Below, in pieces: positions 32,984 to 49,858 of a DNA stretch of 64,000 nt (position 1 is its first letter; each line of letters opens with the position of its first letter). The notes beneath the pieces are model-generated. The model saw nothing but the letters and a program-made list of their open reading frames with translations, had not been told where the DNA came from and searched no databases. Made by a program: the position numbers and the translations under genes. This DNA is from a virus. Taxonomy: Duplodnaviria > Caudoviricetes. Where the stretch lies: IMG/VR virus record IMGVR_UViG_3300009540_000001, positions 96,001-160,000 of that record; one strand, given 5' to 3'.

Positions 32984-33453
32984 GGCGCCCACCACGCAGG
33001 CGGCTTCCGATGATGCGCCCACCGCGCGAACGCACTCTTGTCCTTCAGATAGAAGGTTCGATACGCCGCGACGGCGTCAGGTCCGCGATAGGCCTCGGGC
33101 ATCGTCTGCACGAACGGCGTGCGCCGTACTTGTGTAAACACGAGTTCGGGCGCCCGGACCTTTACGGCGTGAAGAACCTGGCGCGCCGCATGAACACCCA
33201 AGAAGCGCAGGGTGTACTCGTCACACAGCGCGAAGCCGTGGGCGAGCGCCCACTCGAAGTTGCCTCGCGACGCGCCTACCCACTTGGTAGCGGGATGGCC
33301 GGTGTGCGAAGGCTTGTAGCCGACGTCGAGCCCCTGGGAGCGTACGACCGTCGAGAGCATCTGCGCCGTCTCCGTGGGCATCTTTACGACGTGTTGGTCG
33401 CAGGCCATGCGGGCGGCGGTGACGGGATGTACGTGAAGTACGAAGAGGTTCAT
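32980..33453 (-). CDS. DenV-like pyrimidine-dimer DNA glycosylase family protein
   Basis: MNLF.L..P..AA...CDQHVVKM..E.AQMLST..HP..W..EY..RF..H..AYR.FY..K..P.WW. Confidence 0.8.
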   Translation of the reverse strand: MNLFVLHVHPVTAARMACDQHVVKMPTETAQMLSTVVRSQGLDVGYKPSHTGHPATKWVGASRGNFEWALAHGFALCDEYTLRFLGVHAARQVLHAVKVRAPELVFTQVRRTPFVQTMPEAYRGPDAVAAYRTFYLKDKSAFARWAHHRKPPAWWAP

Positions 33454-33668
33454 CGCCCGACGTTCCCCGCGTTCTGCTCGTACTGAAAGCTCGCGTGGCA
33501 CTTCACCTGCCGATCGAGCGCGACGTCCCCGCCGTCCCCACCGGAGAAACCCCAGACGCCGTCTGCGTAGCCCGCGCCCCAGCCGTCGCCGGTGATGCCG
33601 GCTTGATCAAAGCCGTACACGCCGGACAGGGCGCCATCGCCGTCCGGGCTTCGTCCCTGTTCGTTCAT
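33450..33668 (-). CDS. GDG-YEE family microprotein
   Basis: DGDG..GDGWG..GGDGG..QYEQ. Confidence 0.7.
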   Translation of the reverse strand: MNEQGRSPDGDGALSGVYGFDQAGITGDGWGAGYADGVWGFSGGDGGDVALDRQVKCHASFQYEQNAGNVGR

Positions 33669-33850
33669 CGCGGTCTCTCCCTCTCGTACTCCTGCTGCAC
33701 GTTGCTGCACTCGTGCTCCGCAAACCCGTCCCCGTCCGACATCCCCCAAGCGTCGTCCGTGAAGCCCGAACCCCAGCCGTCGCCGGACTTTTCGAGGTGG
33801 CCGTAGGTGCTGGAGAGGAAGCCGTCGCCGGTCCAGTGCGGGGCGCTCAT
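33665..33850 (-). CDS. GDG-YEE family microprotein
   Basis: GDGF..GDGWG..DGDG..EYER. Confidence 0.7.
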   Translation of the reverse strand: MSAPHWTGDGFLSSTYGHLEKSGDGWGSGFTDDAWGMSDGDGFAEHECSNVQQEYERERPR

Positions 33851-34089
33851 GCCTCGTCCACATACGTGAGCCCGTACCAGTAGTACGGAAGCCACTCGTT
33901 CTGCCCGCAGCCGTCGCCAGGGCCGTAGTTGAAGCACCCGTCGCCGAAGCAATCGCCGGCTTCGTTCTCGCGCTCCACGAACTCGCCTGTGATGTCGTTG
34001 AAGCCGAGCCATGTCTCGCCTTCCGAGCCTGTGCTGTCGCCGTCGCCGCTCGCGTGCGCGCGGCCACACTTGACGTTGTCTCGGTCCAT
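33847..34089 (-). CDS. GDG-YEE family microprotein
   Basis: GDGD..GDGC..PGDGCG..YVDEA; TGATG coupling. Confidence 0.65.
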   Translation of the reverse strand: MDRDNVKCGRAHASGDGDSTGSEGETWLGFNDITGEFVERENEAGDCFGDGCFNYGPGDGCGQNEWLPYYWYGLTYVDEA

Positions 34090-34115
34090 CAGTAGTCGTC
34101 CTCCTCGTAGCTCAT
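34089..34115 (-). CDS. Mini-ORF MSYEEDDY (linker / empty cassette)
   Basis: ATGAGCTACGAGGAGGACGACTACTGA overlaps both neighbours. Confidence 0.45.
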   Translation of the reverse strand: MSYEEDDY

Positions 34116-34303
34116 CGCCGCTCACGCCCCGCGCGTTGGTAGATGCGGTACACGGTTCCCATCACGACGAAGAGCCACTCGGGCAGGCGACTGCCGCCGT
34201 CTTCGTTGTATGGCGGGCTCGCCGATCCGCTCATCGGGTACCCGTCCCCGTCTCCGAACGCCCCCGCGTTCGGTGCGTAGTAACTCGTCGTCAATCCGGC
34301 CAT
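34112..34303 (-). CDS. GDG family microprotein
   Basis: FGDGDGY..; SD GAGGAG from upstream HEES codons. Confidence 0.6.
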   Translation of the reverse strand: MAGLTTSYYAPNAGAFGDGDGYPMSGSASPPYNEDGGSRLPEWLFVVMGTVYRIYQRAGRERR

Positions 34304-34500
34304 ACGCTCTCCTCGTGGGGCCCGTACGCCCACATCCCGTACTCGTCTCGGTGCTCGTAGGTGTCGCGGTAGAACGCGCCGTCCGCGCGCGTCTCGATGA
34401 CGCCAATCGGCGTACCGAATCCGTCGTCGTCGCTCGTCAGGCACGGCGCGCCGCGCCCGTCGCCGGAGAAGTGCACGCGTTCGCCACGCTCTTGCGTCAC
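34291..34500 (-). CDS. GDG-YEE family microprotein
   Basis: SGDGRG..DDGFG..TYEH..HEES. Confidence 0.65.
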   Translation of the reverse strand: MTQERGERVHFSGDGRGAPCLTSDDDGFGTPIGVIETRADGAFYRDTYEHRDEYGMWAYGPHEESVWPD

Positions 34501-34700
34501 AGCTCCAACCTCCTCCGCGTCGCTTCCATCGCCTTCACGTCGTCCCCTGCGTCTTGGTAGTCACTTCGTATGAACGAGCCTCGGTAGTACGTGTTCGGCG
34601 CGCGATAGGGGTTCTCGCCCCAGTTGATGTAGATGAGGTACGCGCCGCCGTCGCCGTCTTGGCCGAAGGCGGCGGAGTCTTCCCGGGGTGTGCGTCTCAT
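34497..34700 (-). CDS. GDG-YEE family microprotein
   Basis: MRRTP..DGDGG..DYQD. Confidence 0.65.
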   Translation of the reverse strand: MRRTPREDSAAFGQDGDGGAYLIYINWGENPYRAPNTYYRGSFIRSDYQDAGDDVKAMEATRRRLEL

Positions 34701-34966
34701 GTGTCTCCCTTGACGGAGTTACTCGCGAGGATCGTGCGGATGTCGTTCTGGTACGTCATCAGCGTGAACTTCGTCTTGAGTATCCTCGGCGCTGCGAAGT
34801 TCACCTCGGGTGCGTTGTCTTCGTATGACGGGCGCGGGGAGCCGCCGTCGTCGTAGACGTACGCGTCGAGCGCGAAAGCGCCCCCGTACTTTCGGTACGC
34901 GTACTGGGCGCTCCCGTCGCCGTCATCGAAGCGCGAGGTGTGATACGGCGTCGGTGTTCTTCTCAT
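34697..34966 (-). CDS. GDG-YEE family microprotein
   Basis: MRRTP..DGDGS..DDGG..SYED. Confidence 0.65.
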   Translation of the reverse strand: MRRTPTPYHTSRFDDGDGSAQYAYRKYGGAFALDAYVYDDGGSPRPSYEDNAPEVNFAAPRILKTKFTLMTYQNDIRTILASNSVKGDT

Positions 34967-35169
34967 CGTGTCTCCTCGTATCGCCATCGAATCCACGTAG
35001 GCCGAATCTCGTAGTTGATGAGCACGTCCTTCCCGTCGTTCCCCTCGAACCACCCGATATTCAGGGCTCGAGCGCCGTTGCCGATGCCGTCGCCGTCGGC
35101 CCAGGGGAACGCGCTCTTTGCGCCCCGCCCGTCGCCGTCCTGCTCACACGCCATGGGTCGGTATTTCAT
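34963..35169 (-). CDS. GDG-YEE family microprotein
   Basis: DGDGRG..DGDGIGNG..RWRYEETR. Confidence 0.7.
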   Translation of the reverse strand: MKYRPMACEQDGDGRGAKSAFPWADGDGIGNGARALNIGWFEGNDGKDVLINYEIRPTWIRWRYEETR

Positions 35170-35354
35170 CGACCCTCCTCATACCGTCGCTGCGTCCACC
35201 CGCCCTGCGTCTCGTGGTCCGCCTCGTCGTCGGCGTCGTCCCACAAGATGCTCTTGCCCCACGTCCCTACGCCGCGTCCGCTCCCCTGAACGTCAGCAGG
35301 AAAAGGGACGAGCCCTTCGCCCCCGTTCGAGGCCACGGTTGGTCGTTGTTTCAT
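35166..35354 (-). CDS. GDG-YEE family microprotein (probably leaderless first gene)
   Basis: GGEG..GSGRG..RRYEEGR; ATG 5 nt after TATAAG. Confidence 0.65.
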   Translation of the reverse strand: MKQRPTVASNGGEGLVPFPADVQGSGRGVGTWGKSILWDDADDEADHETQGGWTQRRYEEGR

Positions 35355-35359
35355 ACGGT

Positions 35360-35386
35360 CTTATACCAAGTACGAACGGCGTTTAC
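35360..35386 (-). promoter_or_regulatory. Candidate phage promoter (GTAAA-N16-TATAAG)
   Basis: At the head of the 30.5-35.4 kb array. Confidence 0.65.
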
Positions 35387-35426
35387 GCCTCTCGTGCCCT
35401 CGCGTCGGATGGCTTAGCCTTCCTGC

Positions 35427-36125
35427 ATGAGAGTCGACTACGTCCCCGGCGCCTTGCTCACCGTCCTGCACGAGTCCGCCGTTGCCTTCGACGGCACCGA
35501 CCCGGAGCGCGCCGTCGCGACGCTCGGCGGCCTGGCGCTGAAAGCAGCGCAGCCCGGCGTCGACCTGAACGCCTTCGTCGTCGAGACCCTGGCGACCGGG
35601 CAGGCCTACCTGCGCAACGCCGCAGGGAAGCAGATCGCGTCGCTCACGGCGCTCGCGCTCACCTGGGACGCGATGGCGTCGCGCATCAACTCGGACCGAA
35701 CCTTCTCGCAGTACGTGCGAGCATCGGTGACGACGCCGGGAGCGCTGACGGCGCAGACAGCGCTCTTCGCGGGTGGCGTCGACCCGACGCTCACGGCGGG
35801 GGCGGCCCGGTTCAAGTACGTGGCGGCGGGCAACGCGGGGCTGTTCTTCTTCGACCAGAAGACCGCCATCGACGTCTTCGCCATTCAGGGCAAGTTCCCC
35901 GGCGGCGCAGCCCTCACCTGCACCATCGAGCTCGTGAACCTCGACGACGGCGCCCAGCCGATCGACAGCGAGGCGGCGACGCTGGTGTCGGTGACGCTGC
36001 CCGCCTCCGAGGACTTCAGCGTCCTCGACGCGATCCGGCTTCAGAAGTCGCAAGCGATCCGCGTGACGTGCGCCAACGCGGGCAAGGCGTGGGTTTCGTT
36101 CCGACAAGCGCCGGCGAGCCCGTAA
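35427..36125 (+). CDS. Hypothetical (structural?) protein
   Basis: 232 aa, strong codon bias. Confidence 0.6.
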   Translation: MRVDYVPGALLTVLHESAVAFDGTDPERAVATLGGLALKAAQPGVDLNAFVVETLATGQAYLRNAAGKQIASLTALALTWDAMASRINSDRTFSQYVRASVTTPGALTAQTALFAGGVDPTLTAGAARFKYVAAGNAGLFFFDQKTAIDVFAIQGKFPGGAALTCTIELVNLDDGAQPIDSEAATLVSVTLPASEDFSVLDAIRLQKSQAIRVTCANAGKAWVSFRQAPASP

Positions 36126-36161
36126 GCTTGCGGGGCGTACGCCGTAAAGAAGAGGGGCCCC

Positions 36162-36749
36162 ATGGGCGTGGTAATCCGTCTGCTCGCCGTCCTTCTCGTC
36201 CTGCTGCTCAGCGCCTGCGAACCGCCCCCTTCGCTCCCCTCGACGGGGCGCACCATCCGCGTCGCCCTCGGCCCTGACCCCTCCGGTCTCACCGGGTGGC
36301 GTCCCGAGCATCGCGCCGCGTTCCTTCGTGCCCTCGCGTCGCTGCGCGCCACGGGCGACACCTGGCTCGAGAGCGCTGTCGGCGACGCCGACGTCGTGGT
36401 CGAACCCTTCGACGCGGGGGCCCGCTGCTCGCACGCAGGGGAGTACTCGCCGGGCGAGCGCCGCGTGCGCATCGACTACGCATGCGTCCCGGGCGACGAG
36501 AGGCTCGCGTACGCCATGGTGCACGAGCTGCTGCACTACCTGACGTGGATCAACGCGCGCTGGGTGGGGCACATCTGCGTGCAGCCCGGCGACGCGACGG
36601 ACTGCACAGCGCTCGTACGTGGCGAGGCGGTGCTCAACCCTGTGATGCCGGGGCAGTTCGACGCGAACGGGGAGCCGCTCGGGCCGCCCGACGCGACGCT
36701 GCGCCGCGCAGACGTCGAGTTGGTGCGGGCACTAGGGCGTACGCCGTAA
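36162..36749 (+). CDS. Lipoprotein zinc metallopeptidase (HExxH)
   Basis: Signal peptide with LSAC lipobox; VHELLH..H..NPVM. Confidence 0.65.
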   Translation: MGVVIRLLAVLLVLLLSACEPPPSLPSTGRTIRVALGPDPSGLTGWRPEHRAAFLRALASLRATGDTWLESAVGDADVVVEPFDAGARCSHAGEYSPGERRVRIDYACVPGDERLAYAMVHELLHYLTWINARWVGHICVQPGDATDCTALVRGEAVLNPVMPGQFDANGEPLGPPDATLRRADVELVRALGRTP

Positions 36750-36758
36750 ACTTCTCGC

Positions 36759-37991
36759 ATGATCATTTTCCCGGCTACAGGCGGCGGTGGCGGTCCTGGG
36801 CCGCCTGGACCGGCCGGTGTTGGTGCCCGACTCACGTTCGATCCTGCGCAGGCGACGGACGCGGCGATCGGGCGCTACCAGACGTTCCCGGCGCTGTACA
36901 CCAAGTACCTGACCAACCCCCTCGTCGACATCTGCATGGCGAACGGGGGGCAGATCCCCGCGAAACCTGGGGGCGGGAACTACCTCATCAACAAGGTGAC
37001 GAGGCTGCTCTCGGACGCCGAGGGGCAGATCACCATCGACATGCTCGAAGGCGCGGCGTTCGAGGGGGAGTGTCTCTACTGGGAGAACTTCCGACTCTGC
37101 AACCGCTCGTCCACCGTGTGCCTCGTGCCAACGGGCGACTACCCGTACATCGGGCTCGGGCCGAAGGCGTGGATGGCGCGCGGATACACCACCGACGTCG
37201 TGCCGGTGATCGCGGCGCCGTGCTTCATCTGGACGACGGAGGACGGCGGCGTAGGGAAAGGCGTCTCCCTGAAGTTGGGGGAGCAAGCGAAGTTGAACAA
37301 CAACATGTTCAACCCCGAGCCGAACGCAGGGCCGGTGTTCGAGGCAAACGGCACGGGCCCGAGCCCGAACGCCGCCCAGGTGTATCTGGAGGCAGGCAAG
37401 CGCTCGGTCATCCCCGTAGACTCCTACGCAGGCAACGCCAACAGCAACATCAGCATCAACACGATCGACGGCACCGCCTCCGTCTCGTTCGATCAGCCGA
37501 ACTACCTGGGGCAGAACTCTCCGCTCGACGCAACCGCGCACCCGGACTTGCAGTTCAACACCGGTCTCATCGTGCCCGGGTTCACGATCGCCAACGCAAG
37601 CGGCGGAGGCGCCCCGCAGTGGCTCCAACTCGTGCAGTCGGTGAATACCACCGACGCTACGCCCACCACGGTGTTCCCGGTCCAGGCTCCGCCCCCGGTG
37701 ATCTCCGCAGGCATCGACTTGCGCATGACCGCGCGTGACGCCGCGACGGGCGACACCGCGACGTGGATCATCAAGGGGTTCGTCCACTTCGGCTTTGTGG
37801 GCGCGGCCTTCGGCCCGCTCGGGCTCGTCAAAGACTTCTACGACGCAGACCCGGGCGCAGCCGCGTGGACGTGGAACTTCCTGCTCAACTCCCCCGACCC
37901 GAACAACGTGCAGTTGCTCGTGATCGGCGAAGCGGGGAAGAACATCAAGTGGAGCATCTCCCTGGTCGAGATGCTGGTACTGGCGTTCTGA
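36759..37991 (+). CDS. Virion fibre/decoration-like protein
   Basis: Short GPPGPAG collagen-like motif; C-terminal domain shared with 38641-39129. Confidence 0.55.
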   Translation: MIIFPATGGGGGPGPPGPAGVGARLTFDPAQATDAAIGRYQTFPALYTKYLTNPLVDICMANGGQIPAKPGGGNYLINKVTRLLSDAEGQITIDMLEGAAFEGECLYWENFRLCNRSSTVCLVPTGDYPYIGLGPKAWMARGYTTDVVPVIAAPCFIWTTEDGGVGKGVSLKLGEQAKLNNNMFNPEPNAGPVFEANGTGPSPNAAQVYLEAGKRSVIPVDSYAGNANSNISINTIDGTASVSFDQPNYLGQNSPLDATAHPDLQFNTGLIVPGFTIANASGGGAPQWLQLVQSVNTTDATPTTVFPVQAPPPVISAGIDLRMTARDAATGDTATWIIKGFVHFGFVGAAFGPLGLVKDFYDADPGAAAWTWNFLLNSPDPNNVQLLVIGEAGKNIKWSISLVEMLVLAF

Positions 37992-37992
37992 A

Positions 37993-38400
37993 ATGCCAGA
38001 CACACTCATCCGACTTCCGGTACCGCTCAAGGGATCGGGGGTTCACTACCTCGAAACCGCACAGAGCTACCTGATCGCACCCTCCGGGTCGGGGATGATT
38101 CTCATCCCTTGCCCGGAGAACGCGTCGCTCATCGTGAGCGGGAGCGTCACGTTTCGTTCGGCGGCGCCCGAGCGGGGCGGGTCTATTCGGCTCCACACGT
38201 ACGCAGCGCACGGGCGCTTCAACGGACCCCCCGTAGAGGACATCCTGAAGTTCGACGCCTACGGGGATGCCGACATCCTGCTCACGTCGCTCCTCTACGA
38301 TGACGTCCCCGCGCTGCTGTTCGACAACCCGACCAGCGACAACGTGCAAGTCAGCGTCGCACTCGTCGTCCTTCTCTCGTACGCCGTTCTAGGAGTCTGA
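37993..38400 (+). CDS. Hypothetical protein
   Basis: Tightly packed in operon. Confidence 0.5.
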   Translation: MPDTLIRLPVPLKGSGVHYLETAQSYLIAPSGSGMILIPCPENASLIVSGSVTFRSAAPERGGSIRLHTYAAHGRFNGPPVEDILKFDAYGDADILLTSLLYDDVPALLFDNPTSDNVQVSVALVVLLSYAVLGV

Positions 38401-38401
38401 C

Positions 38402-38623
38402 GTGGAACACCCGAGACGCATTCGTCTGCTCGAAGCCGCCTCCTGCGCGCCTAACGGCGTCGACCTGATGACCAAGGCGGGCCAGGAGTACGACGTCCTC
38501 CCAGATCCCGAACCGAACTTGTTCCCCCTCAAGGGCTGGGTGCGTATCGAAGTGCCCGTCGAGTGGGAGCCCGCGCCCGTGCTCGTGTGGCTCAAGCCCG
38601 GGTCGTTCGCGGTGATCGGCTAG
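38402..38623 (+). CDS. Hypothetical protein
   Basis: SD AGGAG; in operon. Confidence 0.5.
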   Translation: MEHPRRIRLLEAASCAPNGVDLMTKAGQEYDVLPDPEPNLFPLKGWVRIEVPVEWEPAPVLVWLKPGSFAVIG

Positions 38624-38640
38624 CCGACTATCCTGTCGGC

Positions 38641-39129
38641 ATGTTCAAAGTAGACAACGACAACGTCGAGTGCGAATCCGCCAAGATCAACCAGGGCCTC
38701 GAAGTGGGCCAGCAGGTCACCGTCGGGGGCTGCTCGCTCTCGCTCGGGTTCAAGGGCACGAGCGTCGACGCCGAGTGGGCCGACGTCCTCTCGCAAGAAG
38801 TCCCCGCTGGGCTCGCCGAGAACCTGCTCCTTCAGGTCGTCGCGTACGAGCCCGCCACGGGCGACGCCGCCGCCATGACCTTCAACGGCCTCGTCATCAG
38901 CCACCCGAGCGGGCTCTCGATCATGCCCTCGGACATGATGAACTCGCTCGACAAGCGCATCAACACCCCGGGCGCCGCTGACTGGGCGTTCCGCGCGGTG
39001 ATCGCGCCGGACGTGACGCCGGACACCACGCCCCCGACCCGGAACATCAAGCTCCAGGTCAAGGGCGAGCTGAACAAGACCATCAAGTGGGCGATCTCGG
39101 TCCGCGCGTCGCTGGCGCTGAACGAGTAA
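38641..39129 (+). CDS. Protein homologous to the C-terminal domain of 36759-37991
   Basis: ATGD.A...G..PGAA.W..V.GE..K.IKW.IS in both. Confidence 0.6.
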   Translation: MFKVDNDNVECESAKINQGLEVGQQVTVGGCSLSLGFKGTSVDAEWADVLSQEVPAGLAENLLLQVVAYEPATGDAAAMTFNGLVISHPSGLSIMPSDMMNSLDKRINTPGAADWAFRAVIAPDVTPDTTPPTRNIKLQVKGELNKTIKWAISVRASLALNE

Positions 39130-39145
39130 CTTACGGCGTAAAGAA

Positions 39146-39171
39146 AGCGGGGCGGTTCGCCGCCCCTGCTC
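39146..39171 (-). terminator. Terminator between convergent blocks
   Basis: agcggggcgg-ttcg-ccgcccctgct; minus strand continues TTCTTTACG. Confidence 0.6.
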
Positions 39172-39462
39172 TCATCGCGGCGCCTGGCGCCGCAGGATGC
39201 GCAAGATGGCGCGGTCCTCTGCCTCCTGGATGGCGCGAACGGAAGCGGCACGGAGGATGGAGCTCACATCCGGCGACTGAACCAAGAACCGCTTGATGTC
39301 GAACGCGTACCTCAATTTATCAGCCTCCTCGTACTGCGATTGAAGCGTCCACGCGGGGGCATACGTGAGCGGGTCGCCGCCGCCGTCGCCAGAGATGCGT
39401 ATGCTCCTGGATTCGAGGGGCTCTGAAAGACCGTCGCCGTTGACGTAGTAGTTGCGGCTCAT
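39172..39462 (-). CDS. GDG-YEE family protein with C-terminal extension
   Basis: NGDGL..SGDGGG..QYEEA + helical tail. Confidence 0.65.
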   Translation of the reverse strand: MSRNYYVNGDGLSEPLESRSIRISGDGGGDPLTYAPAWTLQSQYEEADKLRYAFDIKRFLVQSPDVSSILRAASVRAIQEAEDRAILRILRRQAPR

Positions 39463-39722
39463 TCTTTTACCTCCGCGCGACGCATCACATCCATGAAGTC
39501 CTCGAGCGCCGCGCGGCTGATGATCGAGATGCCCGGCAGCGCCTGGACCGTCCAGATCACCGGTTCTTCGTACGTGTACTGAACCTTGCTCTCGAAGACG
39601 GCTATGCCGCCCTCGCGCCAGCTGGTGTGTGAGTCGTACCCGTCGCCGCCAGAGGCGTGAGGGTTCACATGCGCGCTCAGTCCGTCCCCGTCATCTCGGG
39701 CGCAGTCAGGCTTCGTTTTCAT
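39459..39722 (-). CDS. GDG-YEE family protein with C-terminal extension
   Basis: DGDGL..GGDGY..TYEEP + tail. Confidence 0.65.
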   Translation of the reverse strand: MKTKPDCARDDGDGLSAHVNPHASGGDGYDSHTSWREGGIAVFESKVQYTYEEPVIWTVQALPGISIISRAALEDFMDVMRRAEVKE

Positions 39723-39729
39723 GCGCGCC

Positions 39730-39954
39730 TCACTCCTGCACCAGCTTCCGAATCCGCTTCGAGAGCAGCTCGTTCCCGATCTCGCGATTGAACCGGCTGA
39801 GGATCTCGTTCACGTCCTCGTACGCCTCTTCGTGCTGCCATCGCACCCAGTAGCTCACCTCCGCTTTATCGTCTTCAAGGTCGCACGCGGCCTCGTACCC
39901 CAAGGCGCTGTACCCGTCCCCGGAGTAGCGCGCGTTGTCGGCGCGGCGCCTCAC
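39730..39954 (-). CDS. GDG-YEE family microprotein
   Basis: GTG start, RRR..SGDGY..HEEAYED. Confidence 0.6.
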   Translation of the reverse strand: MRRRADNARYSGDGYSALGYEAACDLEDDKAEVSYWVRWQHEEAYEDVNEILSRFNREIGNELLSKRIRKLVQE

Positions 39955-40118
39955 GTCCAGCCCTCCCAGCTCTTGCACCAGCCCTCGGGGTCCGTGTAGC
40001 TGCTCTCGACGTAGTACGACATCGAGTCCCCCTCCCAATTCCCGATGGTGCCGTCGCCGTTCTCGTACGCAACGCCGCCGTCGCCGCTCAACTCACACGA
40101 CTCGCTTCGGTTTCTCAT
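39951..40118 (-). CDS. GDG family microprotein
   Basis: MRNR..SGDGG..NGDG..SWEG. Confidence 0.6.
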   Translation of the reverse strand: MRNRSESCELSGDGGVAYENGDGTIGNWEGDSMSYYVESSYTDPEGWCKSWEGWT

Positions 40119-40300
40119 GCGTACGCAGACTCCTCGTAGTGCATATCGAGCTGCCATGTGCGGTTCTCCCCCTCGCGCCACAACACGTGCGCGTCGCCCG
40201 ACGCCAAGACCTCGAACGGCACGCCGTAAACGCTCGCACAGCTGTCGTCGCCGTCGCCTTGGCCGTCGCCTTCGTAGCTGTACAGCACGTTATGACGCAC
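40115..40300 (-). CDS. GDG-YEE family microprotein
   Basis: MRH..EGDGQGDGD..HYEES. Confidence 0.7.
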   Translation of the reverse strand: MRHNVLYSYEGDGQGDGDDSCASVYGVPFEVLASGDAHVLWREGENRTWQLDMHYEESAYA

Positions 40301-40334
40301 GTTCTTCGAGCTCCTCGTACGAGGTTCGCCTCAT
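40290..40334 (-). CDS. Mini-ORF MRRTSYEELEERAS (empty cassette)
   Basis: SD GGAGG; ATGA overlap; family N-terminus joined directly to YEE. Confidence 0.5.
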   Translation of the reverse strand: MRRTSYEELEERAS

Positions 40335-40609
40335 CCCTCCCTCCCCTTCGCTCTTTCTTTCGCCCTCGCCTTCCACGCCCTCTGCGCCACTCGCTGCATC
40401 TCGAGGTGCGCCTCGCAGCGCGTCTTACCCGGTAAAGGCGGCGCAGCGCAGTCCAGGCAGCTGTTCGCTAACCTCCTGTTATCTCTGTACTTTTTACAGT
40501 TCGCCGCGTGGATCGGCTTGCATGCCGTGCAGTACGCAGCGGCGTCGGCGTGCGGCGTCGCGCAACGCACGCAGGGTTTCATGTCTTCGGCTCGAGACGC
40601 AGGTTGCAT
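40331..40609 (-). CDS. Zinc-finger protein
   Basis: CxxC..CxxC..CxxC..CxxH; basic tail; SD GGAGG. Confidence 0.6.
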   Translation of the reverse strand: MQPASRAEDMKPCVRCATPHADAAAYCTACKPIHAANCKKYRDNRRLANSCLDCAAPPLPGKTRCEAHLEMQRVAQRAWKARAKERAKGREG

Positions 40610-40625
40610 AAGGAACCTCCACGAT

Positions 40626-40652
40626 CTTATACCAAGATCGAGGGTTCTTTAC
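40626..40652 (-). promoter_or_regulatory. Candidate phage promoter (GTAAA-N16-TATAAG)
   Basis: At the head of the 39.2-40.6 kb array. Confidence 0.65.
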
Positions 40653-40828
40653 GGCGTGTACTCCTCCTCGTAGGCCCACTGCACGGTGTACGTGTACACC
40701 TCGGCTTCGTCCGAGTGCCCGCCGTCGCCGTTGTACCAGCCGACGTGGCCGGGACCGATCCCAACGTGGTGCTCGGCCACACCGCCATCGCCGTTGCGCG
40801 TCGTCACCGACGCATCGCGTCGCTCCAT
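40649..40828 (-). CDS. GDG-YEE family microprotein
   Basis: NGDGG..NGDGG..AYEEEY. Confidence 0.7.
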   Translation of the reverse strand: MERRDASVTTRNGDGGVAEHHVGIGPGHVGWYNGDGGHSDEAEVYTYTVQWAYEEEYTP

Positions 40829-40933
40829 AACGCACGCCGTCTTTCTGACGCGCTGCGGCGTCTTTGCTGTCGGGAAATGTAGGCAACGCGCACGGACCAA
40901 AGGGCGAGCCCGAGAGCCCGCCCTATCGGCGAA

Positions 40934-41239
40934 TCAGGCCGAGACGGACGTCGCCCCGCGCCGCCTTCGGGCCGCTTCCTTCTCGGCCCGGGTGCCGTGC
41001 TTCGGGCGCGGCCCCTGGACGGCGAAGTACGCCTTGTGGTCGCGGTTGGCGACCCGGGCAGCCTGCCGGTTCGGAACGCGCTCCTGGCGGAAGCCTTGCG
41101 CGAGCAACCGGGTCTTCTCCTCGGGGGTGATGCGGACCATCGCCGCCCGCCCATGGACGTCGCGGAAGTGCAGGACGTTGGCGACGATGTAGGACGAGGT
41201 GGGATTGAGGGTTGGAAGCGTGGAATCGTTGGGGTTCAT
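40934..41239 (-). CDS. Basic hypothetical protein
   Basis: 101 aa from MNPNDS. Confidence 0.5.
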   Translation of the reverse strand: MNPNDSTLPTLNPTSSYIVANVLHFRDVHGRAAMVRITPEEKTRLLAQGFRQERVPNRQAARVANRDHKAYFAVQGPRPKHGTRAEKEAARRRRGATSVSA

Positions 41240-41305
41240 GGCCGGGGACGGTAGCGAGGTTGGGGGATGTTTGTCAAGGCTGAGGAACCGCCACAAGAAC
41301 GACGA

Positions 41306-41831
41306 GAGAATTATAATTCGTCGGCTACCTCTAGGACACATTGCAAGACCCCATCCCCTCCTGCGTGTGTATGGGGAAACCGAGGGTTCGCCCCGGCAGT
41401 TTCAAGAAGGCACATCCACCTACATCCCTGAAAGACCCTCGAAGCAGACCGGACGTAAGTAGCCCTACCGAAGGAGGGAGGGCGAAGGTTCAGCGAGGAG
41501 AAGACGATAACCTACCGAAACCATTGATGAATATAGGTGGTATGTATATTGCAACGCACGCGCAATAGATAGACATATACATGTACGTGTACGTGTATGT
41601 ATATGAAGGGCTTCGTCGCGCGCGGTCACTTTATCCTACATCTACTCCAAGGTAGGAGCATGTAGGCAAGTGTCGGTCTCGCCGCCGGCCGACGGGCCTT
41701 CGCGCGAGACCGTGTAGGGAAAGGTGCTTTTTTGAAACCGCTCCGCCGAACCCCTGGTTTCCCCGTACACACGCAGGAGGGGATGGGGTCTTGCAATGTG
41801 TCCTAGAGGCAACAGAGGGATTATAATTCTC
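41306..41831. repeat. Inverted-repeat pair (~120-bp arms, 44-bp identical core) around an AT-rich spacer
   Basis: 41328-41371 is the exact reverse complement of 41766-41809; arms ~41306-41424 and ~41713-41831. Confidence 0.9.
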
Positions 41832-41870
41832 CCCTTGCCTTTAGAACCTCGCGGCCCTAGTCTCCCGGGC

Positions 41871-42737
41871 ATGGCCCTCCCCCTGCAAGACAGTGCGATC
41901 CCCATGTCCGTCTCGATCCGCCAGAGCATTCACGCACGGCTCACCGCCGTCGTGAACCGCGAGATCGAAGCCGGAAACATCCGCGCGACGAAACTCACGC
42001 GAGCCGTCGTCGAGATCCTCGAGAACTACGTGTACGAACGCGAAGCGTCGTACAAAACCGGCACGCAAGCGCAGCTGGCCGCCGCGCAGGCTGAGTTCTT
42101 TGCGGCGAATCCGCACCTCGTGACGCTGCCTCCGGCGCCCCCGCCCCCGCCGTCCGCGTACGCCCCGCCAGGGGCGCCGCACCCGGCGTACGCCCCCGTC
42201 CCCCCGGTCTACCCCCAAACGCGCCCTGGCGTGGCGCCTGCGCAGCCCACGGCCCCTCCCGCCCGTGCCGACCAGACCAACCCCGCGAACTTGACCGATC
42301 GCCCGGAGCTGATCCTCGGCTACACCTCACGAAATGGCGGACAGTGGCCGACAATGGCGGAGATGTGGGCGCCGCTCGGGACGCCGGGGGCCGAGATGCA
42401 CCAGTGGGAGCGAACGCAAGAGAATCTCGCCCGAAACTCCAGACTCGCGGCAGCGGAGGTCCAAGCGCGGAAAATGATGTTTTCAGCGAACGTCGTGCCC
42501 CCGCAGATCAAGGACGAAGACATCGACCGCGCGATGCGCGTCGGCGCCGCCAAGCAACACCTGGGGCAGCACCTGGGGTCGCAAGGCGCGGCGCGCCCCG
42601 CCGCCGAGGAGGACGACGCCACCGAGAACGCGCGGCGCGCCGCCGCCCTCCAAGCCGAGTTCGACGCGGACCCCGCGCTCGACGCCCTCTTCCCCAAGGA
42701 CGGCGTGTTCGACGGGTTCGGCAACCGGGTCGGCTGA
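41871..42737 (+). CDS. Hypothetical protein with proline-rich linker
   Basis: 288 aa; PPAPPPPP/PAYAP low-complexity middle. Confidence 0.55.
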   Translation: MALPLQDSAIPMSVSIRQSIHARLTAVVNREIEAGNIRATKLTRAVVEILENYVYEREASYKTGTQAQLAAAQAEFFAANPHLVTLPPAPPPPPSAYAPPGAPHPAYAPVPPVYPQTRPGVAPAQPTAPPARADQTNPANLTDRPELILGYTSRNGGQWPTMAEMWAPLGTPGAEMHQWERTQENLARNSRLAAAEVQARKMMFSANVVPPQIKDEDIDRAMRVGAAKQHLGQHLGSQGAARPAAEEDDATENARRAAALQAEFDADPALDALFPKDGVFDGFGNRVG

Positions 42738-42880
42738 CGAGGCCCGCGTCGCTCGCTCAAAAGGGGTTGCGGGGCTTCGCCCCGCGCACCCCGGAGCGTC
42801 GTCCGCCTTAGTGTCACGCACCGGGGGTGCGGGGGCGACGCTCGCGGCGCTCAGCGAACTCGCCTACGCTTGGCAGCATC

Positions 42881-43996
42881 ATGCCGCTCTCTTCGTTCAG
42901 CTTGCCCTTCGGCCAAGGGCTCGGCCATGCCGCGACCGAGCTCGCGCACCTCGGGCCTGCGGCGAAGACAGCGCCGGCGTTCGCCCACATGGCAGGGGGA
43001 CACAACATCGCACGCGACGCGGCGACGGGGGCAGGGCACTTGAAGGCGAGGCCGCAGGCAGCAGCGCCTGCGGCTCCCCAGCGAATTCCCACGCAGATCA
43101 CGCCGGCCTGGCCGCGCCCCGCGATCGACCGCAACCAGCTCGCGGCGCATCCCGACGCTGGCGAGGTCAACAGCCTCATCCCCAACTACCTCGAGACGCA
43201 GCGCCGGTTGGGGGGTGTTGAGCGCGGGTACGAGAAGCGCCTCTCGCTCACCCCGGATCAAGCCAACCGACTTGACGCCGTAAAGCAACATAGCAAGTCC
43301 CTCGAGAACGAGCTGATGCAGCGCTCCCCCGATCCGGAGGGAACCCTGAACCAGATCGCGGTGCGGGACAAGGTCCACGTCGGACGCGACGGGCTCAGCC
43401 CCAAGGCCCGGCAAACGCTGCTGGCGCAAGCCGCAGCGCCCCGCCGCACCCCGAGCATCAACGCGCCGCCGACGTCGTTCAGCCTCGATGCGTACAAACG
43501 CCGCGCAGCGATTCACGGGGAGCACGAAGCGACGCGCAGCATCGCTGAGCTGATCGGGACGGAGACCGCGAGGAATCTGAACATCCCCCCACCCATTATG
43601 CCCCACGTTCCTGCGGGAGCTAAAAAAGTCGGAGCCTATATGCCCACCTTCCGTAAGTACGCCAACCCCCAACCTCTGTCCGGCGTCCTTCGGCACCTGG
43701 CCGAATCCGCCCACAGCAACCCCGGCCGCGCCGACGCCATGATCGCCGGTGGCAACAAGGCCATCATTCACGGCATCATCGGCGCGCTTCTCGGCACCGC
43801 CGGCGGCGCCATCGCCGCGCGCCCCGGGGACGAAGACCACGGCGCTTTACGCGGTGCACTCTACGGCGGCGCGACCGGCGCCGCGCTCGGCGGGTTGACG
43901 GGGTACAACCAGGCGATGAAGACCCCGGTGAACCCGTACCGCTACAACGCTCTTCGGGCCTCGGGCGACGCCCTGCGCGGGGCGCTTGCAGCGTGA
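42881..43996 (+). CDS. Glycine-zipper protein (KxA family)
   Basis: FRKYANP; HGIIGALLGTAGGAIA..GALRGALYGGATGAALGG. Confidence 0.6.
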   Translation: MPLSSFSLPFGQGLGHAATELAHLGPAAKTAPAFAHMAGGHNIARDAATGAGHLKARPQAAAPAAPQRIPTQITPAWPRPAIDRNQLAAHPDAGEVNSLIPNYLETQRRLGGVERGYEKRLSLTPDQANRLDAVKQHSKSLENELMQRSPDPEGTLNQIAVRDKVHVGRDGLSPKARQTLLAQAAAPRRTPSINAPPTSFSLDAYKRRAAIHGEHEATRSIAELIGTETARNLNIPPPIMPHVPAGAKKVGAYMPTFRKYANPQPLSGVLRHLAESAHSNPGRADAMIAGGNKAIIHGIIGALLGTAGGAIAARPGDEDHGALRGALYGGATGAALGGLTGYNQAMKTPVNPYRYNALRASGDALRGALAA

Positions 43997-45324
43997 ACCG
44001 CCCACATCTTCGTGACTGCGCTCCGCGCGAGAAGCGTGCCGTTCTCGGCCTGCTTGCGCACGGGGGCATTGCTGCGGCCATGACCGCCGGCGGGCACCTG
44101 GGGACGAACCGGGCGGGGCTCGTCGCGCATCACGCGAGCAACATCGCGGAGGTCCTGGCCCACAAGGGATGGAACACCGGGTTGCTCGAGCAGGGGCTGA
44201 ACCCCGACCGCGCGCAGGCGTTGAAGGCGATGTTCGGTCCGGAGGCGCTGATCCCGTACGAGTTGGCGAACACGGCGGCCAAAAAATTGGTCGCGAAGTT
44301 TCCGAACCCCGTCGAGCGGGCCACGGCAATCCGCGAGGCGCTGCGCCAGTACCAGGAGACGGGGCTGACGAATCACGCCCCCGGCGTCGGCCACCTCATG
44401 TCCGCCATGGAGCACGATCTCAAGGGCACGGCCCCGAAGCTCTCGGCCAAGGGACGCCTCGCGAACTGGTACTCCAAGGCCGTCGACAAGCTGACGAACC
44501 ACGTACGGACCGGTTTCGAGACCCCCAGTCAGAGCGTGGGAAACGCTTTCCTCGGTGCGGCCCCCCTCGCGCCGATGCTCGCCGCTGACGCTGCGGTGAC
44601 CGGTTCTCCGCTCGGAGCGCTGGGGCACTTCGGGTGGAACGCGACGCGCAACGTCGTGGGCAACACCTCGATGGGGGAGAAGTTCGTCGCCGACCAGCTC
44701 GCGAAGGGTTTGCGCGGCGACGTGCCCGGAAAGTTTCAGACGGCGCTATTCAACTACGGCTTCTCCCCGGCCGTGCTCGAGCCGCGCATGCTCGGCAAGG
44801 CCATTCATGATCTTCCCAAGGGTCAAGAGTACATCGCGCGTGCGCGGGCGGCCCCCGGGGCGCTCGCGCAGTCCCTCCCCGCGCAATCGGCGCGCATACG
44901 CGACGCCGAGCAGCACGCAGCCTTCGAGCTCGCAGGGAAGCAGCACCAGCTGGACGACGCGCACAACGCGGTGAAAGCGCAGTACGCCAACCTGCGCGGC
45001 AAGGCCCACGAGATCGGGGTTTTGCCGGGGTCGCCCGCGTCGCGGTTGGCGGATACGGAAGACTTGGCCAGGGCCCCACTGCTCGCCAGTCAGGTCGCCA
45101 CGCGCGACGCACAAGAACGACTCCGCGCCTCGGCCGGTAAGGCTCAGCAAGGCCTCGCCACCGCCGCCAACGAAGTCACCGCCTTCGGCAACTCGATGCC
45201 CGGCCGCGTGTTGAAACACACCGAGCAGGCCCTGGCGAAGGCCGAGCAAGACCACGCGAACAAGTTCAAGGTTCGTGTGCTGACGGGCCAGCCCGCAGCA
45301 CACGCCCCTGACGGTTCGTTCTAG
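43993..45324 (+). CDS. Ala/Gly-rich protein (KxA family)
   Basis: EKRAVLGLL; GTGA overlap. Confidence 0.6.
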   Translation: MNRPHLRDCAPREKRAVLGLLAHGGIAAAMTAGGHLGTNRAGLVAHHASNIAEVLAHKGWNTGLLEQGLNPDRAQALKAMFGPEALIPYELANTAAKKLVAKFPNPVERATAIREALRQYQETGLTNHAPGVGHLMSAMEHDLKGTAPKLSAKGRLANWYSKAVDKLTNHVRTGFETPSQSVGNAFLGAAPLAPMLAADAAVTGSPLGALGHFGWNATRNVVGNTSMGEKFVADQLAKGLRGDVPGKFQTALFNYGFSPAVLEPRMLGKAIHDLPKGQEYIARARAAPGALAQSLPAQSARIRDAEQHAAFELAGKQHQLDDAHNAVKAQYANLRGKAHEIGVLPGSPASRLADTEDLARAPLLASQVATRDAQERLRASAGKAQQGLATAANEVTAFGNSMPGRVLKHTEQALAKAEQDHANKFKVRVLTGQPAAHAPDGSF

Positions 45325-45440
45325 TTCTTCGTCTCCCAGCGACCCCAGACCCACAGGATGGCTGCGATCACGCCTGAGAGCGCCGCCATCCCAAGGATGA
45401 TGAGCCCGATCACGAGTGCTCCGTCGAGTAGCGTGTTCAT
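45321..45440 (-). CDS. Small single-TM membrane protein (39 aa)
   Basis: MNTLLDGALVIGLIILGMAALSGVIAAILWVWGRWETKN; coupled to upstream YEETP. Confidence 0.55.
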   Translation of the reverse strand: MNTLLDGALVIGLIILGMAALSGVIAAILWVWGRWETKN

Positions 45441-45637
45441 GGTGTCTCCTCATACCTCCAACGCACGTCCATCCGCCAGGTCTGCGATTCGAGCCCCCCG
45501 TCTCCCCCCCAGCTCCCGCCGCCCGCGCCATCGCCCTTCCCCTCCTCGAGTCCGTTCGACTTGCTGCCCTCGCCGCCGGAGCCGCGCCCGTCGCCCGGGG
45601 AGATGGCGTCGTACGCGTTGGTGGGCTTCTCTTTCAT
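45437..45637 (-). CDS. GDG-YEE family microprotein
   Basis: PGDGRG..GDGAG..GGDGG..RWRYEETP. Confidence 0.7.
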   Translation of the reverse strand: MKEKPTNAYDAISPGDGRGSGGEGSKSNGLEEGKGDGAGGGSWGGDGGLESQTWRMDVRWRYEETP

Positions 45638-45837
45638 GTCCTCTCCTGGTACGTCCGCCTCACGGAAGGCAGCCCCTCCCACGACCCGTACCCGTCGCCC
45701 GCGTCTTCCCCGCCCCACGAGTTGTCGTAGTAGATGTTGCGGAAGCCGTTGCACTCCTCCACCGTGTAGCCGCTGTCGCCGCCGTCTTCGTAGTCTTCGC
45801 CAGGGTCGTCGGCACAGGCTTGCGACTTCTGCCTCAC
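45634..45837 (-). CDS. GDG-YEE family microprotein
   Basis: DGGD..AGDGYG..TYQERT. Confidence 0.65.
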   Translation of the reverse strand: MRQKSQACADDPGEDYEDGGDSGYTVEECNGFRNIYYDNSWGGEDAGDGYGSWEGLPSVRRTYQERT

Positions 45838-46058
45838 CCCGTCGCGCTCCGGTTGAACTTCCCCATCGCCTCCACGAGCTCGGGGTCCACGCCCAGGCGC
45901 TTCACGATCTCCCGCGCCTCTTCGCGCGAGACGGTGTCGTGCGCCACCCACGCCTCCCACGCCTCGGTGATCTGACCCCGGTGCTTTACGCCGTGAAGAA
46001 GCTGAAGCTGCCCGATGCGCCGCTTCAAGTCGTTGAATTCCTTAACGTATTCGCTCAT
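45834..46058 (-). CDS. Small helical hypothetical protein
   Basis: Coupled on both sides. Confidence 0.6.
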   Translation of the reverse strand: MSEYVKEFNDLKRRIGQLQLLHGVKHRGQITEAWEAWVAHDTVSREEAREIVKRLGVDPELVEAMGKFNRSATG

Positions 46059-46219
46059 GTCTCCTCGTACTCCTCTCGTAGCGCTCTGGCCGAGAGCGCG
46101 GGGAACCCCCAGCCATCGCCAGTCTGGTCGTCCCCGTCCGGCTCGTAGCCCCAGGCGTAGTACTCGTTGTTCTCGCCGCAGGCGAGCTCAACATCGTAGG
46201 GGTTGAAGTTACGTCGCAC
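46055..46219 (-). CDS. GDG-YEE family microprotein (54 aa, not in ORF track)
   Basis: MRRNFNPY..DGDD.TGDGWG..EEYEET. Confidence 0.65.
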   Translation of the reverse strand: MRRNFNPYDVELACGENNEYYAWGYEPDGDDQTGDGWGFPALSARALREEYEET

Positions 46220-46388
46220 GCGTGTCCTCTGTGTACTCGTACTCGAGGTCCCGCTCGCCTACCGGCCCGCCCTTGTAGTTCTCGCCACCCCCGCACCCGT
46301 CGCCGGGCCCGTCTCCGAAGTGCCCATTCACAACGCCGACGCCGTCGCCGCCTCGGTAGTTGAAGAGGTTGTCGGAGGTGTGTCTCAT
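46209..46388 (-). CDS. GDG-YEE family microprotein
   Basis: MRH..GGDG..GDGPGDGCG..YEYTED. Confidence 0.7.
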   Translation of the reverse strand: MRHTSDNLFNYRGGDGVGVVNGHFGDGPGDGCGGGENYKGGPVGERDLEYEYTEDTRAT

Positions 46389-46657
46389 TCGCTCTCTTTC
46401 TCCTCTGTGTACTCCCACGTCACGAGCGACACCTTCTCGTTCGGGCTGTACACGCCCGCGTCGCCGTCGGAAGTGTCGTACCCGCCGTATCCGATGCCGC
46501 CGCCGTCCCCGGAGATCTTGAAGGTGCGGTTGAGGCTGACGTTGAGGATGCCGCCCCCGCCTGTGTTGACCCGTGCGTTTTCGTACTCGTACGTCCAGGT
46601 ATACGCCAGGTGAAAGCCGTTGCCGAAGCCGTCGGCGCCCCAAGGTCGGCGCCTCAT
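46385..46657 (-). CDS. GDG-YEE family microprotein
   Basis: MRRR..DGFGNG..SGDGGG..EYTEE. Confidence 0.65.
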   Translation of the reverse strand: MRRRPWGADGFGNGFHLAYTWTYEYENARVNTGGGGILNVSLNRTFKISGDGGGIGYGGYDTSDGDAGVYSPNEKVSLVTWEYTEEKESE

Positions 46658-46689
46658 CCCTCGTAGATCTCCTGCACCCGCTCGCACAT
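46654..46689 (-). CDS. Mini-ORF MCERVQEIYEG (linker)
   Basis: SD GAGG; ATGA overlap with the next gene. Confidence 0.4.
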   Translation of the reverse strand: MCERVQEIYEG

Positions 46690-46693
46690 CACC

Positions 46694-47164
46694 TCAAGCG
46701 CCCCTCCGCGTCCCCTTCGGCGGTCTCCGGAAGATCAAGAACCCTCCCGAAGACCCGACGAGCACCCAGTCGTACTCCGACACGTAGTTGAGCAACTCGA
46801 TGCGCACGTCGGCGTACTCCTCGTCGGGCAGCTGCGCGTAGAGCCAGCCGTGGGACTTCGCAGCGTCGTACTGCGACGCCAGCGCAGCCTGCGCCGCGCG
46901 CAGCCTGGGCTTGATCGACGTCGAGCGCGCGTCGACGGTCAGGTCGATGCGCAGATACGACCCGCAGCGATTGAGCGCTTGCACGTAGGATTCGAGCTCG
47001 AGGGCGCTCGCGTCTTGCGCAGTCGTACGGTCGATGCGGAACTCGTTCACGAGCTGCGAGAGCGCGTTCCGAATCCGGTAGTTGTCTCCGTGCACCTCGA
47101 GCCGGTAGTCCGGATCGTCGGTGCTAGTGATGCGTGCAATGTACTGGATGCTGTTGTTGTTCAT
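46694..47164 (-). CDS. Hypothetical protein
   Basis: 156 aa, ATGA coupled. Confidence 0.6.
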   Translation of the reverse strand: MNNNSIQYIARITSTDDPDYRLEVHGDNYRIRNALSQLVNEFRIDRTTAQDASALELESYVQALNRCGSYLRIDLTVDARSTSIKPRLRAAQAALASQYDAAKSHGWLYAQLPDEEYADVRIELLNYVSEYDWVLVGSSGGFLIFRRPPKGTRRGA

Positions 47165-47346
47165 TTTACTTCTGACTCCTCTTCCTCTTCCTCGTCGTAC
47201 AGGATTCTCGCGTAGTCATCCGACCCGTCGCCGCCCTGGACCCCGGACCCCCCATCCCCCCACCCATCCCCGTACGGATTCGCGTAAGAGATGACCGGCG
47301 ACCACCCATCCCCGAACCGATCTACGCCTTCGCCGCGTTTGTACAT
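47161..47346 (-). CDS. GDG-YEE family microprotein
   Basis: FGDGW..YGDGWGDGG..GGDG..LYDEEE. Confidence 0.7.
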   Translation of the reverse strand: MYKRGEGVDRFGDGWSPVISYANPYGDGWGDGGSGVQGGDGSDDYARILYDEEEEEESEVK

Positions 47347-47359
47347 GGCGCACACACCT

Positions 47360-47581: not shown

Positions 47582-47748
47582 GTGTCCTCGTCATACTCGT
47601 ACCTCGGCACGCGCTCGTAGTTGTCCCCGTAGCCATCCCCGACTTTCCCGTCCCCCGTGCCGCCCCCGAGGCCGTTTACGAAGTGCCACTGTCCGAGCTC
47701 GGTGGGCTCGAGATACTGGCGGCCCTCCCAGTACATCTTCGTCTTCAT
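47578..47748 (-). CDS. GDG-YEE family microprotein
   Basis: TGDGKVGDGYGD..EYDEDT. Confidence 0.7.
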   Translation of the reverse strand: MKTKMYWEGRQYLEPTELGQWHFVNGLGGGTGDGKVGDGYGDNYERVPRYEYDEDT

Positions 47749-49857: not shown

Positions 49858-49858
49858 G

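Follow-up and report, generated by a model that had tools for sequence, protein, structure and literature searches.

The 64,000-nucleotide (nt) stretch analysed here (the window) comprises bases 96001-160000 of a 172,374-bp viral genome with direct terminal repeats (Duplodnaviria, Caudoviricetes; IMG/VR record IMGVR_UViG_3300009540_000001), and its minus strand carries arrays of small paralogous genes, many of whose products carry a Tyr-Glu-Glu (YEE) motif, typically near the C-terminus. These arrays probably represent ordinary translational coupling of co-directional small genes, in which the YEE codons also serve the next gene as its Shine-Dalgarno (SD) sequence; we infer both SD use and coupling from the layout of the sequence, codon statistics and comparative insertions and deletions (indels). 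In the arrangement proposed here, most starts would overlap the preceding stop as (A/G)TGA, with the downstream SD lying within the final 2-5 codons of the gene before it. The hydrophobic-x-Tyr-Glu-Glu motif with its tail of 1-6 residues would be a protein feature first, and because Glu-Glu can be written as GAGGAG, it would also supply the SD with tails of 2-4 residues, at 5-11 nt from the start. Selection would keep both Glu codons as GAG at SD positions, while elsewhere the residues would stay and the codons drift. Each unit would begin directly with its start codon and end in an SD-like 3' tail, so that loss, gain or swap of a whole unit would leave a working junction. Very short open reading frames (mini-ORFs) between units would be scars of this turnover, leftover unit ends kept for the ribosome-binding region of the next gene, an origin that is presumed for the first two of the three described below.

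26992-56365, minus strand: span of the family, about 50 small paralogous genes of 45-100 amino acids (aa) with GDG repeats and an aromatic-acidic C-terminal motif, from our own gene models and a family hidden Markov model (HMM)

The family forms several clusters, which are interrupted by plus-strand blocks at 35427-39129 and 41871-45324, and its members have a mean length of 70 aa and a mean net charge of -6.5. They share a layout in which Met is followed by a basic residue or Ser, then by three GDG-type motifs, hydrophobic-x-Tyr-Glu-Glu and a further 1-6 residues. Gene models were built from codon log-odds and a start score that contains an SD term, and they agree nearly completely with public gene calls on identical contigs. 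The comparators were contigs L001, L003 and L011 together with contigs of two sludge runs placed on 30001-50000, the sequencing runs found being DNA metagenomes. Activated-sludge assemblies hold the same phage at 99.98% identity; contigs L007-L010 are likewise the same phage (99.98% identical) and contribute nothing comparative, and runs X3 and X4 hold short, near-identical pieces only and are uninformative as comparators. No match was found in the INPHARED phage collection by megablast (nucleotide) or tblastn (capsid-region protein).

Codon choice at YEE depends on the distance to the next start

The preliminary description of this DNA, made from its letters and open reading frames, had proposed that YEE codons serve as the SD of the next gene, and this is backed by the position-dependent choice between the two Glu codons. 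In the window and contigs L011, L001 and L003, YEE motifs ending 2-13 nt before the next start have 39 GAG to 1 GAA (97.5% GAG), as against 23 GAG to 15 GAA (60.5% GAG) for all other YEE (Fisher p=4e-5); the window by itself gives 23/1 near starts and 12/8 elsewhere. The comparison of GAG with GAA is thus positive once the distance to the start is considered, and null if the tails are pooled. The YEE pair in mini-ORFs, 10 and 11 nt from starts, is GAGGAG in both cases. The same shift extends to all family Glu codons ending 2-13 nt before a start, 51 of 54 of which are GAG (94%; 3 GAA) compared with 73% in gene bodies (p=4e-4). At the same distance, 18 of 34 Arg codons are AGG or AGA (7% in gene bodies) and 43 of 59 Gly codons are GGG or GGA (37% in gene bodies). 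The SD-like codon shift near starts is general in this genome and reaches beyond YEE. Genome-wide, GAG makes up 81% of Glu codons and TAC 94% of Tyr codons.

A separate observation concerns YEE lying more than 13 nt from a start, where GAG is used in 23 of 38 cases (60%) against the 81% genome norm (p=0.003), for example at 39564-39572, 31013-31021 and 28065-28073; this low share may reflect avoidance of SD-like words away from starts.

The motif itself is confined to the arrays: in the whole 172,374-bp genome TACGAGGAG occurs 14 times on the reverse strand and never on the forward strand, always within the arrays (window 27046-56242), and its reversed control pattern occurs 1 and 2 times. The minus strand holds 24 YEE, of which 20 lie within 8 residues of the stop, and 12 of the 22 in called small genes end 2-13 nt before the next start. 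It had been claimed that in many units the terminal YEE is written TAC GAG GAG just ahead of the next start; the layout is real, but "many" amounts to about a dozen of some 50 junctions. The example quoted at the time (34963-34980) is exact, lies on the minus strand, and has the stop of gene 34963-35169 overlapping the ATG of gene 34697-34966.

34963-34980, minus strand: YEE junction TAC GAG GAG ACA CG ATG A; 5-nt spacer, ATGA overlap of gene 34963-35169 and gene 34697-34966; predicted duplex -8.7 kcal/mol, 7 nt of it on YEE
35175-35183, minus strand: YEE TATGAGGAG, 5 nt before ATG 35169; predicted duplex -12.0 kcal/mol
31926-31934, minus strand: YEE TACGAGGAG, 8 nt before ATG 31917 of a non-family gene
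31039-31047, minus strand: YEE TACGAGGAA, 11 nt before GTG 31027; the sole GAA among YEE in SD range
40130-40138, minus strand: YEE TACGAGGAG, 11 nt before ATG 40118
45446-45454, minus strand: YEE TATGAGGAG, 5 nt before ATG 45440
46061-46069, minus strand: YEE TACGAGGAG, 2 nt before ATG 46058; best predicted duplex on GAGAGGAG just upstream
48142-48150, minus strand: YEE TACGAGGAG followed by GAGG, 8 nt before ATG 48133; predicted duplex -13.4 kcal/mol
48539-48547, minus strand: YEE TACGAGGAG, 8 nt before GTG 48530; predicted duplex -12.8 kcal/mol
48721-48729, minus strand: YEE TATGAGGAG, 5 nt before GTG 48715
49871-49879, minus strand: YEE TACGAGGAG, 13 nt before ATG 49857
56234-56242, minus strand: YEE TACGAGGAG, 8 nt before GTG 56225

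Junction layout and predicted SD placement

The -4 overlap (ATGA or GTGA) is found at 37 junctions involving the family and the -1 overlap (TGATG) at 2, with 32 non-family junctions at the -4 overlap genome-wide, and 31 of 53 family members start with the -4 overlap. Second codons in these 31 genes are AGA/AGG (12), AGC (7), AAG/AAA (8), AAC (2) and ACx (2), and since the ATGA overlap forces the second codon to begin with A, the Met-Arg/Lys/Ser N-terminus of the family is largely imposed. Where genes overlap by 4 nt, GAGGAG comes to lie 5, 8 or 11 nt from the next start if YEE is followed by 2, 3 or 4 residues, respectively. The phage uses SD sequences at normal spacing, because GGAG/GAGG motifs before 113 long non-family genes end mostly 5-8 nt from the start. 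The junctions share with known overlapping pairs both the overlap itself and an upstream-gene SD motif within about 12 nt of the downstream start.

The mean predicted duplex with the anti-SD is -9.08 kcal/mol at 36 family junctions, compared with -3.85 for random intragenic 18-mers, and synonymous recoding of the last 8 codons weakens it to -7.48 (n=36, p=9e-5); non-family junctions respond to such recoding as the family ones do. The YEE codons contribute at least 5 nt to the best predicted duplex at 11 junctions, and junctions that lack a well-placed YEE have other purine-rich SD-like tails (AGG/AGA Arg, GGG/GGA Gly, Trp-Glu and similar).

YEE as a protein motif

The preliminary description had also seen a hint of selection on YEE at the protein level, which is borne out: the 26-member family alignment has just two invariant columns, one being the Tyr, YEE is found in dozens of very divergent units of the relatives, and it is retained 17-50 residues before the stop in extended members as well as terminally without a following start. 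In the three extended members pointed out earlier (26992, 39172 and 39459) it does lie far from starts, 17, 50 and 34 residues before the stop respectively, and one of these internal motifs differs synonymously between orthologs, so that YEE is preserved while its codons drift.

39564-39572, minus strand: internal YEE TACGAAGAA in member 39459-39722, 34 residues before the stop; the L011 ortholog writes TACGAGGAG
39325-39333, minus strand: internal YEE in member 39172-39462, 50 residues before the stop
27046-27054, minus strand: internal YEE in member 26992-27246, 17 residues before the stop
40664-40672, minus strand: terminal YEE with no start within 39 nt
55354-55362, minus strand: terminal YEE followed by a 119-nt gap

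YEE is taken to be a protein motif as well, because the Tyr is invariant and the motif persists far from starts with relaxed codons; conservation and codon use together indicate that both pressures act on it, as a protein motif and as a putative SD.

The family genes are coding and constrained, as dN/dS (the ratio of non-synonymous to synonymous change) among orthologs is mostly 0.13-0.8. One pair (47578-47748 and L003:794-961) differs by 7.5 non-synonymous and 0.5 synonymous changes, a dN/dS of about 4 that rests on small numbers, and other pairs are at or below 1.0. For 10 members, Pfam-A gave nothing at E<=0.01, the sole weak match being HalOD2 (E=0.046; 14 bits against a 27-bit cut-off), and PHROGs gave no match. 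When the family profile was compared with 1.84 billion representative proteins, 14 matches were obtained, 11 from the same phage and 3 that are 80-97% variants from relatives. AlphaFold2 run on the 26-sequence family alignment gave a mean pLDDT (predicted local distance difference test) of 47 and no secondary structure, and the ESM Atlas held no usable match to the family. This orphan family is a more interesting object than the double use of YEE and SD.

Turnover of whole units

Relatives differ from the window by gains, losses and replacements of units and by shuffles and joints across clusters. All five clean whole-unit indels break at an (A/G)TGA overlap or in the spacer between stop and start. 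Four absences in relatives are listed below, and L011 carries three extra units exactly between stop 32162 and start 32165.

31445-31620, minus strand: whole unit missing in relatives; 176 nt, equal to the start-to-start distance, both edges at (A/G)TGA
31027-31232, minus strand: whole unit (gene 31024-31227) missing in relatives, 13 nt in its place
47348-47584, minus strand: whole unit (47360-47581) missing in L003 and in run X5, 5 nt in its place
49085-49269, minus strand: whole unit (49082-49243) missing in L001, 9 nt in its place

In addition, the cassette 34963-35169 is replaced in relatives by a 34%-identical unit between flanking units that are 75-78% identical, with similarity persisting through the YEE codons on both sides. 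Breaks inside units are also seen, namely a chimera, the scar that forms mini-ORF 3, an 81-nt internal skip at 31950-32032 and a frameshifted unit. The chimeric unit (L001:2733-2942) has its last 29 residues 97% identical to gene 46385-46657 and an unrelated N-terminal part, and its contig connects window position 46486 to about 32936. The frameshifted unit (L011:11977-12201, a homolog of window 31224-31448) has lost its frame through a 1-nt shift and is missing from the gene calls, and a frameshift deletion at 31381 is present in contigs of two runs at depths of 27 and 14.

It had been suggested that each unit is a self-coupling cassette that can be inserted, deleted or shuffled. The modularity holds, since relatives differ by whole units, but the self-coupling is not special, as non-family genes in the arrays are joined in the same way. 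The further expectation that indel breakpoints would fall at TACGAGGAG was not borne out, the clean ones sitting instead where stop and start overlap as (A/G)TGA or in the spacer between them.

Mini-ORFs between array members

The three mini-ORFs of the preliminary description are all present where it placed them. They had been read as minimal cassettes that keep only a start and YEE, a reading that fails for the third and probably for the first.

34089-34115, minus strand: mini-ORF 1, MSYEEDDY; 5' end with ATGA, 3' end with TGATG; GAGGAGGA within it gives the best predicted SD for ATG 34089, spacer 9
40290-40334, minus strand: mini-ORF 2, MRRTSYEELEERAS; ATGA at its 5' end, an 11-nt overlap with a downstream GTG start, and GAGGAG 10 nt before GTG 40300
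46654-46689, minus strand: mini-ORF 3, MCERVQEIYEG; start 4 nt past the upstream stop, ATGA at its 3' end

Mini-ORF 3 is the relic of a full family member. It equals exactly the last 11 residues of an intact 65-aa family gene in L003 (1139-1336), whose 5' part is replaced in the window by a 156-aa gene at 46694-47164. Homology to L003, at 96-98% identity over window 48529-45424, resumes at the mini-ORF 3 ATG, which in the ancestral gene codes for an internal Met; the mini-ORF is thus a 3' remnant.

In mini-ORF 1, the MSYE more likely stems from the N-terminus of an MSY-type unit than from a start joined to a C-terminal YEE. At least seven units begin MSY(E/Q/A), and the nearest paralog of the gene downstream of the mini-ORF starts MSYQ, the alignment showing that the downstream gene is missing just those first residues; the simplest reading is that such a unit was probably severed and left its 5' end as mini-ORF 1. 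It occurs in four related contigs as MSYEENDY (Asp to Asn only), in a region merely 5% diverged. In the same neighbourhood, GTG 34125 was considered as an alternative start of gene 33847-34089 and rejected, as this GTG is lost in all four relatives.

Mini-ORF 2 lies within a 348-nt stretch (40301-40648) that has a weak coding signal in every frame, in an array that is elsewhere tightly packed, and that has no nucleotide counterpart in the relatives. The residues in frame ahead of its Met resemble a third GDG-type motif with marginal support. The family HMM gives the 44-codon frame containing it 7.4 bits, which takes first place of 201 against composition-matched shuffles by a narrow margin, and tblastn of the region to family C-termini gives E values of 0.001-0.008 before correction for about 110 queries; both results are suggestive only. 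The frame of the mini-ORF has a negative coding score. A Cys-rich ORF of 92 codons with several CxxC pairs (40331-40609) lies within this stretch; its coding score per codon is 0.025, where real genes reach 0.2-0.47, Pfam gives it no match and it is absent from public gene calls.

Across the genome, 4 of 44 short gaps hold a gap-bridging mini-ORF, as against 2.9 +/- 1.2 in shuffled gaps (P=0.29), so there is no enrichment, and most array gaps contain no bridging ORF.

Weighing the alternatives

Several points weigh against the double use of YEE as motif and SD. The pooled GAG share of the last 8 codons is 82% compared with 81% genome-wide, which is no difference, and GAG is in any case the codon normally used for Glu. 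Between orthologs, the SD window has no deficit of synonymous change (10/82, against 135/1174 in gene bodies), a comparison of low power. The 39/1 count includes orthologs, so that its entries are partly non-independent, and the 13-nt cut-off was chosen after the data had been seen. At 46069 and 45454 YEE is not the best predicted duplex in spite of its good spacing. Start prediction included an SD term and could inflate the SD statistics, although public calls and family N-termini agree with it nonetheless. Some of these points would fit a simpler account, in which YEE is purely a protein motif, TACGAGGAG is merely how a genome of 65% G+C spells Tyr-Glu-Glu, and its position is a by-product of tight packing: the genome-wide preference for GAG and TAC, the pooled test without GAG excess and the unreduced synonymous change all agree with it, as does the maintenance of YEE without a following start (55362, 40672) and within extended members. 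That account is nevertheless quite improbable, in view of a GAG share that varies with the distance to the start, of Arg and Gly codons that shift strongly to SD-like forms near starts, and of predicted duplexes that are weakened by recoding.

While coupling through the terminal codons is the preferred explanation of the arrays, the mini-ORFs and the junctions have each been given a larger role in other proposals. If the mini-ORFs were functional relays, ribosomes would reinitiate on them, translate 8-14 codons and pass to the next start, so that coupling bridges the scar. This would suit the ATGA with which mini-ORFs 1 and 2 open on the upstream stop, the overlap of mini-ORFs 1 and 3 with the next start (11 nt for mini-ORF 2) and the intact state of mini-ORF 1 in four related contigs, but relays are unlikely, since real gaps show no excess of bridging ORFs over shuffled ones, at least eight other array gaps have no such ORF yet have their own SD, the 5% divergence around mini-ORF 1 makes its conservation prove little, the mini-ORF 2 frame scores negative for coding and the mini-ORF 3 ATG goes back to a Met inside the ancestral gene. 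Doubtful, too, is the idea that the junction (YEE codons, short spacer, (A/G)TGA and a second codon beginning with A) is a recombination linker for homologous or microhomology exchange that actively drives cassette turnover. Every clean unit indel breaks at the junction, the replaced cassette 34963-35169 stays similar through the YEE codons on both sides, and a model of short conserved boundary sequences has been published for phage mosaicism (PMC3233612); the clean breakpoints, however, share just 3-4 nt (TGA), breaks within units exist (the L001 chimera, mini-ORF 3, the 81-nt skip), and random breaks followed by selection for intact genes yield the same pattern (PMC3233612). The most far-reaching combination, in which YEE/GAGGAG-spacer-(A/G)TGA would be a selected universal adaptor of a fast-turning library of acidic microproteins, guiding unit exchange and leaving mini-ORF scars as translated relays, is very unlikely; were it true, any unit could follow any other without loss of translation, and the arrays would be a translation-level counterpart of a cassette system.

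Neighbouring genes and other features

A further family member lies at genome 2901-3092, near the start of the record, 93 kb upstream of the window and far from the arrays, and ends in YEE and five acidic residues. Three non-family genes lie within the arrays and are joined to family units through the same ATGA/GTGA overlaps; their matched domains are conflict-system or repair domains. The genes at 36759-37991 and 38641-39129, on the plus strand between the arrays, encode proteins with similar C-termini (a KW-x-IS motif, then a hydrophobic tail), the larger with a Gly/Pro-rich N-terminal stretch, and may be paralogous fibre-like proteins. The inverted repeat listed below sits in the divergent region with a minus-strand cluster on one side, ending at 40934-41239, and the plus-strand block from 41871 on the other. 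The tRNA-Glu(CTC) that ARAGORN predicts antisense inside a plus-strand gene is unusually long and may be false; if real, it would decode GAG, a codon abundant in family tails.

31621-31917: non-family array gene, fvmX3-analog match, E 1e-4, below the curated cut-off
32162-32734: non-family array gene, fvmX5 (PF20003), E 7e-20
32980-33453: non-family array gene, pyrimidine dimer DNA glycosylase (PF03013), E 2e-6
21364-21693: transfer-messenger RNA (tmRNA) gene predicted by ARAGORN
42552-42644: predicted 93-nt tRNA-Glu(CTC), antisense inside plus-strand gene 41871-42737
41306-41413 and 41724-41831: 108-nt inverted repeat, 86% identical

Comparison with known systems

Gene pairs that overlap as ATGA or TGATG and have the SD within the upstream gene are widespread, and experiments have demonstrated their coupling (Huber et al., 2019, PMC6728339; reviewed in PMC12548453). 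The arrays share with them the co-directional genes, the -4 or -1 overlaps and TGA as the favoured stop (PMC6728339, PMC12548453), and differ in that some 40 repeats stand in arrays of one orphan paralog family and in that the putative SD often coincides with a conserved C-terminal protein motif. An intragenic SD at overlapping pairs is known to affect codon use (PMC6728339, PMC8410138, PMC2784483), and a constraint of the downstream ribosome-binding site (RBS) on codons at gene ends has been described (Eyre-Walker, 1996, as given in PMC8410138; Palleja et al., 2009, PMC2784483). As in those cases, the last codons depart from the genome norm, their bases double as RBS, and the overlap sets the choice of stop and last codons (PMC8410138, PMC2784483). 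What differs is that the constraint is visible here on a single motif (GAGGAG versus GAA-containing forms), separable by distance to the start, and that the overlap also dictates the second residue of the next protein (AGA, AGG, AGC, AAG, AAA, AAC, ACx).

Phage mosaicism with joints at gene boundaries is likewise established, and two models have been put forward for such joints, one of exchange targeted to short sequences at the boundary and one of random breaks with selection (Cresawn et al., 2011, PMC3233612). The arrays show the same insertion, loss and replacement of whole genes, with differences delimited by gene boundaries in the five whole-unit indels and exceptions inside units. Unlike the described mosaics (PMC3233612), the modules here belong to one tandem family of about 200 nt each, and turnover is dense, with many events within 20 kb between phages that are 77-97% identical in the blocks they share.

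One nine-base word thus appears to have two uses, as a conserved protein motif and as the ribosome-binding site of the next gene, and since YEE is also present without a following start, the two pressures can be told apart. A large array would tolerate constant gain and loss of units because each unit brings the initiation signal for the next gene. For annotation, very short ORFs between array members would be scars of former units and not genes themselves, and the apparent N-terminal consensus (Met then Arg, Lys or Ser) would be largely set by the ATGA overlap. To our knowledge, the downstream SD lies within the upstream gene in every tightly packed operon, and the present case is a dense, unusually legible instance of ordinary translational coupling, not a new mechanism. 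Integron cassettes are moved by integrase-mediated attC x attI recombination; neither such sites nor an integrase came to notice in the phage DNA, where no search was aimed at them. Their arrays, in general terms, resemble those described here as small exchangeable units that are expressed together, whereas the modularity of the phage arrays would lie at the level of translation signals.

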